Positions 26,232 to 62,779 of a DNA stretch of 64,000 nucleotides are shown piece by piece (the stretch's first letter is position 1; each line of letters starts with the position of its first letter). Origin of the DNA: Escherichia phage LH01. Under the pieces are notes generated by a model. The model had not been told where the DNA came from, ran no database searches, and was given only the letters and a program-made list of their open reading frames with translations. A program made the translations under genes and the position numbers. Location: sequence record PP434429; one strand, given 5' to 3'.

Positions 26232-26272
26232 TTTATTCTCCGGATGTTTAAGTTGTTTGTTGGTACAGGTCT

Positions 26273-26301
26273 ATAATAACATAACCTGTACCAAAGTAAA
26301 C
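26273..26301 (-). promoter_or_regulatory. early promoter GTTTAC-N17-TATTAT with inverted repeat
   Basis: Arms TGGTACAGG 26261-26269 and CCTGTACCA 26285-26293 (9/9) flank the -10. Confidence 0.5.
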
Positions 26302-26674: not shown

Positions 26675-26716
26675 TTTGTTCTCCAGGTTGTTTTATTGAT
26701 TAGATGGTACAAGTCT

Positions 26717-26770: not shown

Positions 26771-26799
26771 AACGCACAAAAGGGAGACCGAAGTCTCCC
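26771..26799 (-). terminator. terminator after small basic ORF 26805..26984
   Basis: GGGAGAC-UUCG-GUCUCCC hairpin followed on minus strand by UUUUGUGCGUUU. Confidence 0.65.
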
Positions 26800-41501: not shown

Positions 41502-41863
41502 TATTTTATTCCAAAAATTTCTTTAATTTCTGCAATCACATCTCGAGCATTTTCCGTAGTCACTTCAAAGATGAGTGATTGTTTAGAAATAGACTCTGGA
41601 GATACCTCGATGAAGTGTTTAAACTCATCATCATAAAGCTCAAAATATGAACCTGGCTTACCATCAAAACCGAATTCAGTACCGTCTCGCATAGTTACAC
41701 GGGTTACACATTTATCATCATCATAATCTGTGTTCATGTCTTTTACAACAAAACTAGGACCATGAAGCTCAATCAAAGCCAGCATATCGGCGTTTTGTGG
41801 GCATTCATTGGCGAAGATAGCTTTACATTCTGGATTGATGATATAAGTTTTTCCAATTTTCAT
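41501..41863 (-). CDS. hypothetical protein, paralogue A of tandem pair (120 aa)
   Basis: Shares N-terminal IGK.YIINP...FANEC...HGPSFVV and VTRVTM.DGTE with adjacent ORF. Confidence 0.5.
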   Translation of the reverse strand: MKIGKTYIINPECKAIFANECPQNADMLALIELHGPSFVVKDMNTDYDDDKCVTRVTMRDGTEFGFDGKPGSYFELYDDEFKHFIEVSPESISKQSLIFEVTTENARDVIAEIKEIFGIK

Positions 41864-41895
41864 TTTGATTTCCTCTCATTTGTTTTGATAGGACT

Positions 41896-41925
41896 ACTAT
41901 AACATAGCCCTATCTGATTGTACAC
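41896..41925 (-). promoter_or_regulatory. early promoter GTGTAC-N18-TATAGT with inverted repeat
   Basis: Arms TAGGACTA 41889-41896 and TAGCCCTA 41905-41912 (7/8) flank the -10. Confidence 0.45.
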
Positions 41926-42311
41926 TACTTTTTAAAAGTTTTTTGCAAAAGTTTGATGATTTCGTCGACGTTGGTTTCATCTACGATACAATGGATTTTT
42001 GTTACACCTAAAGTTATACCTTCGTTAGTAGATTGAGGCTTTTCTAAAGTTACCTCAGTAAAGTATTTGAATTCTTCAGAGTAAATCTCAAAATACGTCT
42101 CAAGTGGGCCACCAGCCATGTATTCAGTGCCGTCTTCCATAGTTACACGTACCACACAGTCACCAGCACAATCATCACTTTCCATTTCATCTACAACAAA
42201 ACTAGGTCCGTGCTTCTCTATTAAATTTAGCATCATTACATTGCAACGGCACTCGTTAGCAAAGTCATCTTTAAATAAAGGGTTAATGATATAAGATTTT
42301 CCGATTTCCAT
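41925..42311 (-). CDS. hypothetical protein, paralogue B of tandem pair (128 aa)
   Basis: Paralogue of 41501..41863; own GTTTAC promoter. Confidence 0.5.
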   Translation of the reverse strand: MEIGKSYIINPLFKDDFANECRCNVMMLNLIEKHGPSFVVDEMESDDCAGDCVVRVTMEDGTEYMAGGPLETYFEIYSEEFKYFTEVTLEKPQSTNEGITLGVTKIHCIVDETNVDEIIKLLQKTFKK

Positions 42312-42340
42312 TTTGATTTCCTCATGTTGTTGATAGGTTT

Positions 42341-42369
42341 ATACTAACACATTCAGGGAAGAAGTAAAC
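42341..42369 (-). promoter_or_regulatory. early promoter GTTTAC-N17-TAGTAT
   Basis: Upstream of ORF 41925..42311; lies between gene 32 terminator and the ORF. Confidence 0.4.
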
Positions 42370-42392
42370 AACTTTTTCAGCAATTTACAGAT

Positions 42393-42418
42393 ACTCAAAA
42401 GGGAGACCGAAGTCTCCC
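42393..42418 (-). terminator. terminator after gene 32
   Basis: GGGAGAC-UUCG-GUCUCCC hairpin followed on minus strand by UUUUGAGUAU. Confidence 0.7.
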
Positions 42419-42424
42419 AATTTA

Positions 42425-57772: not shown

Positions 57773-58098
57773 TTAAACCATTCCTTAATACGTTGCCAAA
57801 TAGATTTTTGTGCTTGTTTATTTACACCAATCGAACGAATAACCGGTTGTGACTGCTGATATTCTTTATAATCTTCTTTATAGATTTCGTAAGCTGCATC
57901 AACAAATGAACTGATCGCTGCCATGTAGTTTTTACGAAGGCCAAATGGCGCGTCATTATTTTCACGAATAACCGTATATTGACCTGCTTTAATCTTTACA
58001 ATTGTCCCTAAATAAGCCCCGTGGTACCAAATATCCCATCCTTCCTGAGTAGGTTCTGCACATTTACGAAGTTCGTTAATAATATTCAGCTTATTCAT
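57769..58098 (-). CDS. hypothetical protein (109 aa)
   Basis: ORF directly downstream of motA. Confidence 0.5.
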
Positions 58099-58108
58099 TA
58101 TGTATTCC

Positions 58109-58741
58109 TCACAGTACGTTAGTTACAAGGGTAATGATTTCTTTGGACACATTAGGGAAGTCAATGTAAGTATATTTACCACCGATCTTAATCTTAACAT
58201 CATTTTCAAGAGAAGTAAACAGCTTTGATTCGGTTTCTGACATGTTGTATGCAAAGATTCTAAGAGCGCCATCTCGTCGAATTTCAATTTGGCGAATACC
58301 TAGAACTCGTTTTGCAAATCGAACTTCTAAGTTACTACGGTTTTCACCAATTTCTTTAACTTCAACTTTATCTTTAATATTTTCAAAAACAAAGTTTGCT
58401 AATTCATGCATTTCAGGAGTAACTCCACGTGCTTTTCTGGTGTTACGTTTCTGAAGAAGTTCTGGAGCATTTTCTTGGGCAAAGAGGTCTGCAGCTTTTT
58501 GGATAATATCCATTGCTTCGCCTGTTGCTACAAGTCCATCACCGGATTTTTCGACTAAACCTTTCTTAATCAATACACCAATGTTAGAGTTAACAACTGA
58601 TGCATTGTATTCTGCTTCCAGAGCTTCACGGACATTGGCAGCAGTGGTGAAGTTGTTCTTAATGATATAAACCATTATTGCAGCAGTTTTTTCATTCAGA
58701 GCGTTTTCAGAAGCTTTGATGATGTAAGTAACTTTAGACAT
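58109..58741 (-). CDS. motA: middle-transcription activator MotA
   Basis: 210 aa; matches T4 MotA (MSKVTYIIKAS, SNIGVLIKKGLVEKSGDGL). Confidence 0.92.
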   Translation of the reverse strand: MSKVTYIIKASENALNEKTAAIMVYIIKNNFTTAANVREALEAEYNASVVNSNIGVLIKKGLVEKSGDGLVATGEAMDIIQKAADLFAQENAPELLQKRNTRKARGVTPEMHELANFVFENIKDKVEVKEIGENRSNLEVRFAKRVLGIRQIEIRRDGALRIFAYNMSETESKLFTSLENDVKIKIGGKYTYIDFPNVSKEIITLVTNVL

Positions 58742-58808
58742 TTTATTTCTCCAAATTAGTATTTGTTTTGATAGGTCTATAATATCATGTTTGAAGCAAA
58801 AGTAAACT
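58735..58808 (-). repeat. direct repeat copy A (promoter-leader-start cassette, motA)
   Basis: About 75 bp near-identical to 59054..59129, spanning -35, -10, leader, GGAG and ATGTCTAAA. Confidence 0.7.
58779..58807 (-). promoter_or_regulatory. early/middle promoter GTTTAC-N17-TATTAT with MotA-box-like TTTGCTTCA (motA)
   Basis: -35 GTTTAC followed by TTTGCTTCA, 17-nt spacer, TATTAT, GGAG RBS. Confidence 0.55.
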
Positions 58809-58844
58809 TTATTTTGGGCTCTTTTTCAAAAGCCCTGGTAAAAT

Positions 58845-59060
58845 TTACAAACTCATTTCTTTAATAAGGCTAATAAGTTTTGCCTTTTTAGAACGAAGCT
58901 TTTCTAAATGATACCCGTTTGAACCGCGAACAACTAAAGAATTGATTTCAACTTCTAAGAAATTTAATTCTTCAACAAGTGCTTTACGGGGAGCATTCAT
59001 ACCAGGTTTAACTTTACCGAAACGAGTAGTTGTGTTTTGGGTTAATTTCATTTTAGACAT
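58845..59060 (-). CDS. hypothetical small basic protein (71 aa)
   Basis: ORF preceded by a duplicate of the motA promoter-leader cassette, sharing the first codons MSK. Confidence 0.5.
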   Translation of the reverse strand: MSKMKLTQNTTTRFGKVKPGMNAPRKALVEELNFLEVEINSLVVRGSNGYHLEKLRSKKAKLISLIKEMSL

Positions 59061-59129
59061 TTTATTTCTCCAATTTGGTTGTTTTGTTTTGATAGGTCTA
59101 TAATATCATGTTTGAAGCACATGTAAACT
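59054..59129 (-). repeat. direct repeat copy B (promoter-leader-start cassette, ORF 58845..59060)
   Basis: Copy of the motA cassette with a 3-nt indel and a few substitutions. Confidence 0.7.
59100..59128 (-). promoter_or_regulatory. early/middle promoter, duplicate of motA promoter
   Basis: Near-identical copy (GTTTAC-ATGTGCTTCA...TATTAT) upstream of ORF 58845..59060. Confidence 0.5.
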
Positions 59130-59140
59130 GTTTTGTGAGG

Positions 59141-59170
59141 AAAAATGCACAAAAGGGAGCCGAAGCCCCC
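59141..59170 (-). terminator. terminator after gene 52
   Basis: GGGGGC-UUCG-GCUCCC hairpin followed on minus strand by UUUUGUGCAUUUUU. Confidence 0.65.
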
Positions 59171-59246
59171 TAATCATGTTTGTCCAACCAATACAGCCAA
59201 ATCACTAGTGCAGCTATTGCACTGAGAAATCCTAAGGCTAGGGCAC

Positions 59247-60572
59247 TCAAAGTGCCTCCAAGTCTTTAGTGTACTCTGTCACAACATCAGTAGACTTCCA
59301 ATACTCATTTTCTTCTTTCTTAGCTTTAGCTTCTTCTGCTAGTTTACGTGCTTCATCGGAAGTGATATGGAAGATGTTAAGACCTACCAGTTTATCGACA
59401 TGTTCTTTATACATTTCGATTTGTGCTAGCTCTTCGGTCAAAGCTTTACGAGTCTTGCCTTGAATCACAATTTCGCCACTGATAACTTTTTTGATGAAGT
59501 GTGCCTTAGCAAAAGCAAGTTTAAATGCTTTTTCAGATTCAAGGATTTTGTTGTCAATACGTTTCTGAACGTAAGTCTTACGGACTTCAACAAAATCTTT
59601 GATTAAGTCCACTACGTTATCGTAGACAGCTAATTTACCCTTTTCATTAATCACTGTGATGTTTTGTGAACGACGTTCGATGAGACTAAAATCTTTCATG
59701 ATTTTTTCATGACGTAGCTCTTCATCATCAGGAAGCGAGTACTCTTTACGGAACTTCACCTTAAACCCAAAGCCGTGTTCACCGCAATCATCTTCCCATG
59801 AGATTAGACCTTTGTCTTCCAACGGGTCAAGAACCTTACTCACATACGTTTCACGGTCGAATTTATATGGGATTTCAGTTATCTGCATTTGAGTACGAGA
59901 TGTGAACTTGTATGTTCCGTGAATCTCATAACGCCCATCAACTTCATGCACTTCACCACGGAATTCCGGGAATTCAACTTTTGGCTTAGTGACATTTTTA
60001 CCTTGAAGAGCTTGTAATACAGCCTTTTTTACCGATTTAAAACTATGAGGCAGAATATTTGTTGCGTAACCGGTTGCAATACCAGAGACACCATTCAAAA
60101 GAACTGTCGGAATAATAGGAAGATAGAATTTTGGTGGAATGTGTTCTTTATCTTCATGAGCTGGAGCATATTCAGTATCTTTATATACGTTATAGAAATT
60201 TTTACTTACACGAGCAAAAATATAACGAGATGCTGCAGCTTTTTGGACTGTTCTAGAACCAAAGTTGCCTTGGCCATCTAACAGCGGATAGTTGTTGTTC
60301 CATGTGTTAGCCATTAATGCACCTGCATCTTGTGCAGAAGATTCACCATGGTGATAACCTAAATCTGCAACACCGCCTGCAATTGACGCAAGTTTATGAA
60401 ATTTTTCTTTATTACCACGAGCCAAATCTAACGCACGATGAACCACAAAACGTTGAACCGGCTTAAATCCATCAATCATGTTTGGGATTGCACGGTTTTC
60501 AACGGTGTACATCGCATATGCTAAGGCTTCGTTATCAATAATACTTTTTAGATTACGAGAATTCAATTGCAT
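59247..60572 (-). CDS. 52: DNA topoisomerase II medium subunit gp52
   Basis: 441 aa; GyrA-like N-terminus with catalytic-tyrosine region (AASRYIFAR); matches T4 gp52. Confidence 0.95.
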   Translation of the reverse strand: MQLNSRNLKSIIDNEALAYAMYTVENRAIPNMIDGFKPVQRFVVHRALDLARGNKEKFHKLASIAGGVADLGYHHGESSAQDAGALMANTWNNNYPLLDGQGNFGSRTVQKAAASRYIFARVSKNFYNVYKDTEYAPAHEDKEHIPPKFYLPIIPTVLLNGVSGIATGYATNILPHSFKSVKKAVLQALQGKNVTKPKVEFPEFRGEVHEVDGRYEIHGTYKFTSRTQMQITEIPYKFDRETYVSKVLDPLEDKGLISWEDDCGEHGFGFKVKFRKEYSLPDDEELRHEKIMKDFSLIERRSQNITVINEKGKLAVYDNVVDLIKDFVEVRKTYVQKRIDNKILESEKAFKLAFAKAHFIKKVISGEIVIQGKTRKALTEELAQIEMYKEHVDKLVGLNIFHITSDEARKLAEEAKAKKEENEYWKSTDVVTEYTKDLEAL

Positions 60573-61639: not shown

Positions 61640-61667
61640 TTTGTGTTCCTCATGTTTCAGTAGGACT

Positions 61668-61697
61668 ACTATACCATAATCCTACCTTGTTGTAAAC
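61668..61697 (-). promoter_or_regulatory. early promoter GTTTAC-N18-TATAGT with inverted repeat
   Basis: Arms TAGGACTA 61661-61668 and TAATCCTA 61677-61684 (7/8) flank the -10. Confidence 0.5.
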
Positions 61698-61889
61698 AAT
61701 TAAATTACATTAAAATATGTTAAAGCCAACCATGTTCCAGTGAACGAACATGCAATGTAAAAACCCGTATCACAAATTGTTCTTAGTACAATAAGAAGTG
61801 CATTTTTCATAAGTACCTCAACACAATTGAAAATATTATACAAATCATTGGGATACTAAGCAACCATATTCCTATCCACATTTTAGAGC

Positions 61890-62153: not shown

Positions 62154-62180
62154 AATGTTATCCTCATTTAGATAGGACTA

Positions 62181-62210
62181 CTATATCATAGTCCTACTTA
62201 GTTGTAAACA
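62181..62210 (-). promoter_or_regulatory. early promoter GTTTAC-N18-TATAGT with perfect 8-bp inverted repeat
   Basis: Arms TAGGACTA 62174-62181 and TAGTCCTA 62190-62197 flank the -10. Confidence 0.5.
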
Positions 62211-62221
62211 CTTTTATGAAA

Positions 62222-62779
62222 TTAAAGATGAAGATACCAGCCGTTGTAGTTGCTCTTGCGGACGATTTTCTTTAGGTCTTCATGGTCTCCCACGAACTTT
62301 ATAGAATAAGAGAAGACGTCAGGTGAGGTTTCTTTGACATCTAATATAATAATGCAATCTGCGACTCGATGATTAAGGAAGGGCCCTATGTTGATTCCGT
62401 TGCCGCCTGGATAATCACCACTGTATCCTGTTGTAACAGAAATCCATTTAGAATCCATCTGATGTGTCTTGACTTCTACACGAATTCCACAATATTTAGG
62501 ATGGGCTAACACGTCCCACGCATACGTATAAGGGTCTTCAAGATCTTCGATACCGCCATTGACATACCCATCAAGCCAATTAGCGACTACATACTCTGCA
62601 AAGACCGCAACCTTACAACGTCGAACTACGTCTTCTTTTATTTGACCTGGATCTTGTTTCAACGAGTACCGAGCAGTGTCAGCAATCTTCACTTTCATTT
62701 CACTAGTCAAAAACTCATTCGACAGGATAAATGTCGGAAGATTCTTCAGCCTCAACAGTCCCAAGTTCGTCTTTACCAT
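62222..62779 (-). CDS. denB: putative endonuclease IV (DenB-like), 185 aa from ATG at 62779
   Basis: Position between ndd region and rIIB as T4 denB; AGAGG RBS before internal ATG; assignment by synteny and length only. Confidence 0.55.
   Translation of the reverse strand: MVKTNLGLLRLKNLPTFILSNEFLTSEMKVKIADTARYSLKQDPGQIKEDVVRRCKVAVFAEYVVANWLDGYVNGGIEDLEDPYTYAWDVLAHPKYCGIRVEVKTHQMDSKWISVTTGYSGDYPGGNGINIGPFLNHRVADCIIILDVKETSPDVFSYSIKFVGDHEDLKKIVRKSNYNGWYLHL

Follow-up and report, generated by a model that had tools for sequence, protein, structure and literature searches.

Between gene 52 and motA, Escherichia phage LH01 (PP434429) carries two near-identical segments, each comprising an early promoter, a leader and a start codon; these segments were examined within a window of 64,000 nucleotides, the whole stretch of DNA analysed here. 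The phage is of the T4 type, resembles RB69 and falls in the genus Mosigvirus. Positions 58000-59400 match vB_EcoM_G53 best (99.1%), and approximately 155 Mosigvirus records match at 95% or above (megablast). Read along the coding (minus) strand, gene 52 comes first and is followed by cassette B, orf71, cassette A, motA and arn.4. Gene 52 (59247..60572, minus strand), for the medium subunit of topoisomerase II, is the upstream neighbour and the 5' boundary of the slot; its 441-amino-acid (aa) open reading frame (ORF) matches Pfam DNA_topoisoIV (6.5e-78), and the product is named gp52 in RB69 and JS98. The cargo between the cassettes is a 71-aa ORF, orf71 (58845..59060, minus strand), which matches phrog_6200 (1.6e-39) and no Pfam family. 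The motA gene (58109..58741, minus strand), encoding the activator of middle transcription (Pfam MotA_activ, 2.4e-39, and MotCF, 2.2e-8; phrog_1345, 4.8e-90), is situated 3' of cassette A, beyond the interval bounded by the repeats. An earlier note on this DNA had described the small ORF as downstream of motA; in the direction of transcription it lies upstream.

The near-identity of the two segments reported in that note was borne out by self-blastn of the whole window, which aligned 59052-59129 with 58733-58808 over 78 nt at 91.0% identity (E 1.4e-22). No other internal repeat of the window scores as high, the runner-up being 38 nt long (E 4e-8). The copies are direct repeats, 319-321 nt apart: a repeat search reported the pair as two blocks, one of 55 nt at 91% with spacing 321 and one of 37 nt at 84% with spacing 319, and what had been taken for a 3-nt indel is a length difference of 2 nt. 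On the coding strand each copy begins with AGTTTAC and continues with three variable nucleotides (ATG in B, TTT in A), followed by an exact 37-mer, TGCTTCAAACATGATATTATAGACCTATCAAAACAAA, present in both. The leader patch after the 37-mer has diverged (ACAACCAAA in B, TACTAAT in A, lengths differing by 2 nt), and 3' of it both copies carry an exact 22-mer, TTGGAGAAATAAAATGTCTAAA, beyond which orf71 (ATG AAA TTA…) and motA (GTT ACT…) go their own ways and the similarity ends. All of the motifs named in the note (GTTTAC, TGCTTCA, TATTAT, GGAG and ATG TCT AAA) are present in both copies on the minus strand. An assembly artefact was ruled out, the same arrangement being found in dozens of independently sequenced phages.

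Two strong T-even early promoters with optimised ribosome-binding sites might resemble each other by convergence, without homology and without any role in recombination. Other early promoters of the window do share GTTTAC, TAnnAT and a downstream motif resembling AGACCT/AGTCCTATC, over 90 nt the promoter at 26301 shares 73% identity with copy B, and the T4 early promoter consensus is known to extend beyond the hexamers (PMC2988021). When the 37 early-promoter-like sites of the window were compared in all 666 pairs, over 90 nt each, the cassette pair was 84% identical against a mean of 57.5% (standard deviation 5.1; z = 5.4), and the second-best pair reached 76%; the similarity is therefore well beyond that of a shared promoter consensus. 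The earlier note had named as its own refutation other promoters of the window that match equally well, and none do. Convergence is further opposed by the exact 37-mer, which spans the normally unconstrained spacer and the +1 region and has only its two sites in the window, even at 3 mismatches (0 expected from shuffles). Derived variants also occur in both copies of one genome (TAGTAT in NHEP11, TACTAT/TGCTTTA in Dhakavirus), and genomes with a single cassette carry chimeras of both copies, as described below. We accordingly give convergence almost no credence.

The two cassettes were delimited from the sequence, self-blastn and a promoter scan. In cassette B (59052..59130, minus strand), the promoter, leader and start of orf71, the -35 element GTTTAC (59128..59123) is followed by a 17-nt spacer containing TGCTTCA, by TGa and the -10 element TATTAT (59105..59100), and by the leader; GGAGAAATAAA starts at 59071, the ATG occupies 59060..59058, and codons 2 and 3 are TCT AAA. 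In cassette A (58733..58809, minus strand), the promoter, leader and start of motA, GTTTAC is at 58807..58802, again with TGCTTCA in the spacer, TGa and TATTAT (58784..58779) precede the leader, and GGAGAAATAAA starts at 58752, with the ATG at 58741..58739 and TCT AAA thereafter. Both have the form TTTACW-N17-TAYWAT, with (G)TTTAC followed by A or T, a 17-nt spacer counted from GTTTAC, TATTAT, and TG at -15/-14. AT-rich stretches were read from the sequence 5' of copy B (TTTTGTGCATTTTTCCTCACAAAACA) and of copy A (AAAATAAA), the leaders of about 35 nt are predicted to be unstructured in both copies, and the Shine-Dalgarno (SD) sequence and start codon at the 3' end read GGAGAAATAAAATG in both. 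The idea put forward in the note that the two genes share an expression module is thus a reasonable one, as the same GTTTAC-N17-TGaTATTAT, unstructured leaders and GGAGAAATAAA in both copies would provide the same signals.

A stem-loop forms part of each cassette. The one in cassette B (stem-loop 1; 59142..59171, minus strand) consists of GGGGGCUUCGGCUCCC followed by UUUUGUGCAUUUUU and forms a 7-bp hairpin in the minimum-free-energy (MFE) structure. A scan found a terminator-like site with a T-rich tail at 59171..59152, the annotation of phage WFK has a terminator at the homologous site, and the structure looks like an intrinsic terminator placed after gene 52 and a small downstream ORF. The second (stem-loop 2; 58816..58835, minus strand), GGGCUUUU-GAAA-AAGAGCCC, lies directly 5' of copy A and has an 8-bp stem, a GAAA loop and no U-tract (MFE -13.2 kcal/mol, z -2.98). 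It is kept in JS98 and JS10 as GAGCUCUU-GAAA-AAGAGCUC, where, relative to the window, one G-C pair has become A-U by compensatory change and one U.G has become C-G, and it is present in JS10 despite a different upstream ORF.

Such an assembly of parts is known from the PeSLs (promoter-early stem-loop elements) of T4-type phages, composite cassettes of a stem-loop and an early promoter which end in SD and ATG and flank ORFans; they mediate excision, insertion and replacement of ORFs by homologous recombination, and chimeric elements are found at the junctions (PMC2839356; PMC4122927). Those of the T-even type have TTTACW-N17-TAYWAT, a stem-loop just upstream, an AT-rich region, and SD and ATG at the 3' end (PMC4122927; PMC2839356). 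Both copies in LH01 show every sequence feature published for T-even-type PeSL cassettes. Relatives also differ by indels and replacements with junctions inside the cassette, as seen in the short and long forms of Mosigvirus, in the replacement that separates JS10 from JS98 and in the insertion that separates Sf21 from T4. We consider it very probable that the two segments, both PeSLs of the T-even type, are paralogues of each other, and that homologous recombination uses them to convert one copy by the other, to excise or insert the gene between them and to swap it for another. Copy B would drive orf71 and copy A motA, both being insulated early transcription units that share their initiation signals, and the exact 37-nt and 22-nt runs, in direct orientation and 321 nt apart, would serve as substrates for phage homologous recombination. 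Gene conversion would keep the copies alike, crossing-over would excise or insert orf71 together with one cassette and leave a chimeric cassette before motA, and the conserved cassette sequences would act as junctions for swapping foreign ORFs between genera. What the genomes display directly is the anatomy and the products of natural recombination; promoter and terminator activity, RegB cleavage and recombination intermediates such as mini-circles are expected by analogy with published PeSLs and T4 motA.

The closest known systems are the PeSLs of RB49/phi1 (Arbiol et al. 2010, PMC2839356) and of T4/PST and KVP40/nt-1 (Comeau et al. 2014, PMC4122927), which have the same parts as the cassettes described here, the promoter being of the PST/T4 type. 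In both cases the elements are intergenic and flank small ORFans, relatives differ by ORF deletion, insertion or replacement with a single chimeric element left behind, and crossovers fall between -10, SD and ATG, as in figures 3 and 5 of those papers. They differ in that one flanked gene here is the essential regulator motA, where there it is another ORFan, and in that the homology here reaches the first three codons, probably through gene conversion. Furthermore, mini-circles and promoter and terminator activity were demonstrated by experiment in RB49/phi1 (PMC2839356), whereas for the LH01 cassettes they are predicted. The main texts of PMC2839356 and PMC4122927 do not mention the gene 52-motA locus, motA, RB69, JS98, Mosigvirus or Dhakavirus. 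The locus is an additional, well-documented case of the known PeSL gene shuffling and does not reveal a new kind of element.

Relatives were taken from GenBank phage records, and a search of IMG/VR by MotA gave 2 loci. Presence of the 71-aa ORF in related phages had been proposed as a check in the earlier note; it was found in 93 phage records and, within Mosigvirus, is encoded in about 76 of the approximately 155 records matching the locus at 95% or above. The megablast matches fall in two classes, one full-length and the other of "83% in two pieces". Measured between the stop codon of gene 52 and the ATG of motA, the gap spans 184-188 nt in 12 fetched Mosigvirus genomes of the short form (RB69 included) and 504-508 nt in 6 long forms, and in the alignment the short forms are without exactly one repeat unit of 319-321 nt. 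Since the copies are direct repeats bracketing orf71, a crossover between them deletes or duplicates orf71 with one cassette and spares motA, which stays behind a hybrid cassette. The expectation that the repeats mediate deletion or duplication is in principle borne out by these natural variants, but the gene between them is orf71 and not, as had been thought, motA. The reciprocal product, two orf71 copies in one genome, was not seen among the records encoding orf71, each of which has it in one place.

Three patches tell the copies apart, namely the upstream flank, the 3 nt after GTTTAC and the leader, and by these the single cassettes of the 12 short forms fall into three chimeric classes. 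Nine are B-type throughout, with motA following after ATGTCTAAA, and have their crossover in the 22-nt block. RB69 represents a rare class, with a B-flank, an A-leader and the crossover in the 37-nt core, while mar005P1 and AV112 combine a B-flank, an A-type spacer and a B-leader. Long and short forms are interspersed on the haplotypes of the flanking motA and gene 52. Downstream, two arn.4 haplotypes, with genes of 345 and 330 nt, were observed when mogra, AV112, HX01 and PNJ-6 were compared with other Mosigvirus loci (matches of the 345-nt group start at query position 13), and each of them carries both long and short forms of the orf71 slot.

An opposite history can be written for the same variants, in which the short form with its single cassette is ancestral in Mosigvirus and orf71 with a cassette was gained recently, for example as a PeSL mini-circle that came from a donor resembling Dhakavirus. 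Reversibility is an explicit part of the PeSL model (PMC2839356), the entry of a module of ORF, stem-loop and promoter into the same slot sets Sf21-type phages apart from T4 and JS10 from JS98, and the B-type leader found before motA in most short forms might be the one that motA had originally. The aa identity of orf71 between the window and JS98, however, is 74.6%, compared to 69.5% for MotA, 78.0% for Arn.4 and 80.8% for gp52; a recent transfer would be expected to stand out, as does the ORF shared by JS10 and Tequatrovirus with 98.7%. As its divergence resembles that of its neighbours (69.5-80.8%), a long residence is favoured, and the comparison suggests that orf71 has been in the slot for a long time and was lost secondarily in the short forms. 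The Mosigvirus A-type leader is moreover unlike the leaders of JS98 or JS10, and the A-type leader behind a B-type flank in RB69 is most simply a deletion product of a long form. A recent gain is in our view unlikely, while retaining some weight.

Exchange between the copies is also visible within long forms. In NHEP11 both copies have the derived -10 TAGTAT, and copy A carries a B leader; in EP32a copy B has an A-type spacer. The promoter cores are 1-2 nt apart between paralogues in one genome and 4-5 nt apart between orthologues (window versus JS98), and genus-specific states are common to both paralogues: TATTAT/TGCTTCA in Mosigvirus and TACTAT/TGCTTTA in Dhakavirus. The extent of the homology differs as well. 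JS98 has its own flanking repeat, of 49 nt and 94% identity, which ends after CTATCAAA, and its orf253 starts with ATG AAT AAG (MNK); in Mosigvirus the repeat runs on through the SD and ATG TCT AAA. The Dhakavirus homologues of orf71 start with MNK and those of Mosigvirus with MSK, as does MotA in T4, Dhakavirus and Mosigvirus. From the genus-specific states common to both paralogues, the earlier end of the JS98 repeat with the MNK start, and the longer Mosigvirus repeat with the MSK start, we infer that in Mosigvirus the start of orf71 was overwritten by a conversion tract originating in the motA copy; gene conversion would in this way have spread the SD-ATG-Ser-Lys block of motA onto orf71.

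In other genera the same slot holds other genes. The MotA proteins of JS10 and JS98 are 99.5% identical, whereas their slot ORFs are unrelated (18.7%). The JS10 slot ORF, of 75 aa, is 97-99% identical to an ORF in approximately 138 mostly Tequatrovirus records (2357-2584 in JS10 and 1801-2028 in Sf21, in coordinates of the fetched loci), with homologues also in Merlin and Metamorpho. This identity is far above the usual inter-genus level and implies a recent transfer of the 75-aa ORF into the gene 52-motA slot. The order in Sf21 is gene 52, motA.1, 75-aa ORF and motA, and T4 is without the 75-aa ORF. Near-identity between JS10 and Sf21 begins just 3' of the -10, takes in the ORF, the stem-loop and the second promoter with its leader, and extends to ATGTCTAAA; the upstream promoter core of each is native to its own genus. 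T4 (2600-2740) and Sf21 (1700-2140) are identical through the T4 motA early promoter to CTATCAA, where the Sf21 module is inserted; the module is thus bounded by one junction directly 3' of the -10 (CTATCAA) and another at the start of motA. It follows from this position that Sf21 motA would be driven by the incoming promoter. Judging by the arrangement, the native T4 motA early promoter now drives the 75-aa ORF in Sf21-type Tequatroviruses, and motA stands behind an imported Dhakavirus-like promoter and leader (GTTTACTTCTGCTTTAAACATGATACTAT…), its expression signals apparently having been swapped. In Merlin (Moonvirus) the slot contains three copies of the promoter and three ORFs, and homologues of the 75-aa ORF at 63-73% identity occur in Moonvirus, in the same slot, and in Jiaodavirus, elsewhere and near tRNA genes.

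The earlier note had also pointed to a MotA-box-like GCTTCA in the spacers. The MotA-box motif (a/t)(a/t)(a/t)TGCTTtA is indeed present, as ATGTGCTTCA in copy B and TTTTGCTTCA in copy A. A functional MotA box is located 12+/-1 bp upstream of a -10 (TAnnnT), is centred at -30 and replaces the -35 (PMC2988021). Here TGCTTCA ends 7 bp before TATTAT, there is no TAnnnT at 11-13 bp, and a good -35, GTTTAC, is present; the core matches, but the spacing is wrong for a functional box. A MotA-dependent middle promoter was for this reason rejected, and with 7 bp in place of 12+/-1 bp the cassette promoter is therefore early and not middle. The spacer motif TGCTT(C/T)A is found in Mosigvirus, Dhakavirus, Sf21 copy A and two of the three Merlin copies, and is missing from the T4 motA promoter and from the remaining early promoters of the window in the motif listing. 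One speculation, to which we attach little probability, is that it is a mis-positioned MotA box acting as an operator on the cassette promoters. With rising levels of MotA and AsiA, binding of MotA 5-6 bp out of register would contribute to the shut-off of its own early promoter, and likewise of that of the cargo gene driven by the sister cassette. If this were true, the gene 52-motA slot would be a cross-genus "landing pad" in which the cargo inherits a MotA-linked early burst regulation.

The leaders offer a second candidate signal. T4 motA mRNA is a RegB substrate, cut in the SD, which limits MotA synthesis to an early burst (PMC2988021), and the RegB/S1 target consensus is GGAGRAYARAA (PMC1702504). 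The SD block GGAGAAAUAAA of both copies agrees with 9 of its 11 positions, deviating at positions 7 and 8. Both genes probably have a RegB-type cleavage site in the SD in common, which would give a co-ordinated early burst. Full matches to the RegB/S1 consensus were observed elsewhere on the minus strand of the window, as GGAGAAUAAAA at 26241, 41445 and 53848 and as GGAGAACAAAA at 26684; those at 26241, 26684 and 41445 are SD sequences directly before an ATG. These consensus-matching sites suggest a set of putative RegB-sensitive early genes in this phage.

With such signals at hand, the identity of the cassettes might be ascribed to selection for the site of a trans-acting factor, either RegB/S1 on the leader or MotA at the spacer TGCTT(C/T)A, recombination being incidental. 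Consistent with this, GGAGAAAUAAA is kept in the unstructured leaders of both copies, motA is a known RegB target, and the spacer motif recurs across the genera listed above. A factor site nevertheless leaves unexplained the identity of the whole 37-nt core, its lineage-specific co-variation and the chimeric deletion products. The SD and start blocks of JS98 differ, so that leader-based co-regulation is not conserved, the spacing of TGCTTCA is wrong for activation by MotA, and free MotA binds DNA weakly (PMC2988021). As the cassettes are related by descent and transfer, conservation of the motif is in any case not independent evidence. Co-regulation as the source of the identity thus appears very unlikely.

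Several points weigh against the account of recombining PeSL paralogues or limit its reach. The junction classes come from 12 sampled short forms which share ancestry and do not stand for 12 independent events, and mosaics such as mar005P1 fit more than one history. The direction of change, loss of orf71 as opposed to gain, is deduced and not proven by the match in divergence. Stem-loop 2 has no U-tract and stem-loop 1 is unexceptional in its 71-nt context (z -1.4), and insulation may therefore be partial. The SD block agrees with the RegB/S1 consensus at only 9 of 11 positions. Activity in transcription initiation, termination, RegB cleavage and recombination is presumed from the sequence and from other T4-type phages.

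Comparison with less closely related systems places the locus further. The repeats at the internal-protein (IP) loci of T-even phages (Repoila et al. 1994), as far as they are described in the discussion of PMC2839356, are likewise based on early promoters with weak AT-rich stem-loops, bracket small variable genes and confine shuffling to one slot; the locus and the cargo are different. Integron gene cassettes and phage "morons", an analogy drawn by Arbiol et al. (PMC2839356), are also small self-contained units that come and go at a defined site, bringing a local promoter or using one already there. Unlike integrons, no dedicated integrase or attC-like site is evident here, and exchange appears to rely on general homologous recombination within the conserved regulatory sequence; morons, for their part, are not thought to move via their own regulatory flanks. 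T4 motA shares GTTTAC, the SD GGAG and the start ATG TCT AAA, with TACTAT as its -10, but it is preceded by a single copy without orf71, and its spacer and leader are unrelated and lack TGCTTCA.

The value of the locus is in its rich set of natural recombinants and in the participation of the promoter of a master regulator, motA, in cassette exchange. About 155 near-identical genomes, from coliphage genera that have been well sampled, show both states of one 321-nt unit and constitute a natural experiment for the PeSL model, and with several crossover points and conversion tracts visible, breakpoints within approximately 80 nt of homology can be read directly. Cassette exchange can also rewire the expression signals of the essential regulator motA. 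For annotation and engineering, the gap between gene 52 and motA is a tolerated insertion site and the orf71 family is dispensable cargo, and loss by recombination is to be expected of constructs placed between such repeats.

The orf71 product is an ORFan confined to Mosigvirus and Dhakavirus: in 5.8 billion proteins it formed 8 clusters, all at least 72% identical, and no sequence match was found in Pfam, PADLOC (defence systems) or PDB. Its AlphaFold2 model (pLDDT 77) has a basic disordered N-terminus and a two-helix hairpin (helices 23-44 and 50-70), for which Foldseek gave only generic fold matches, none with E <= 0.001. As about half of the Mosigvirus genomes lack it, the gene can evidently be dispensed with. 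T4 motA.1 was ruled out as a homologue of orf71, with 14% identity and a different position, overlapping gene 52.

Within the slot, an unannotated hydrophobic mini-ORF of 26 aa (MSALALGFLSAIAALVIWLYWLDKHD; 59170-59250, minus strand) has a TTG start that overlaps the gene 52 stop (TTGA). It occupies the place of T4 motA.1 (49 aa, a predicted membrane or periplasmic protein, overlapping gene 52), JS98 and JS10 have a hydrophobic ORF of about 34 aa at this position as read from the alignment, and it is unannotated in RB69, G53 and the remaining Mosigvirus records seen. The composition profile across the gene 52-motA slot showed nothing unusual. When 58000-59400 was scanned against Rfam, the one match, to preQ1-II, fell below threshold (24 bits, where the gathering score is 47; E 0.25) and was taken as chance. 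The promoter/leader cassette or the terminator region is covered by small annotated "hypothetical proteins" in some GenBank records (NHEP11 1351-1479, EP32a 1349-1477, a20 1163-1252 and FL18 997-1131, in fetched-locus coordinates); by their position, these are probably over-calls of non-coding regulatory DNA.

Comparable arrangements were noticed elsewhere in the window. An identical 23-nt sequence, corresponding to the stem-loop GGGAGACTTCGGTCTCCCTTTTG, stands at 42396-42418 and at 26777-26799; at both of these distant loci an AT-rich stretch and then an early promoter with GTTTAC (42369 and 26745, minus strand) come next, as in cassette B. This architecture points to further PeSL-like elements in the genome. 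At approximately 41838-42420 (minus strand), promoter/leader cassettes at 41925 and 42369, 444 nt apart, share 38 nt at 92% and 85 nt at 75%, and the genes after them start alike (ATGGAAATCGGAAAATCTTATATCATTAAC, ATGAAAATTGGAAAAACTTATATCATCAAT), so that the region looks like tandem paralogous small genes, each with its own cassette. A duplicated early-promoter pair was observed at 61661-61714 and 62173-62226 (minus strand; 54 nt, 83%, spacing 512), with promoters at 61697 and 62209. The -10 of both these copies lies within an inverted repeat (GTAGGAcTATGaTATAGTAGTCCTA), a feature of the PeSL subclass that has its stem-loop over the -10, and an inverted repeat over the -10 was likewise seen at the early promoters at 26301, 32454, 35043 and 41925.

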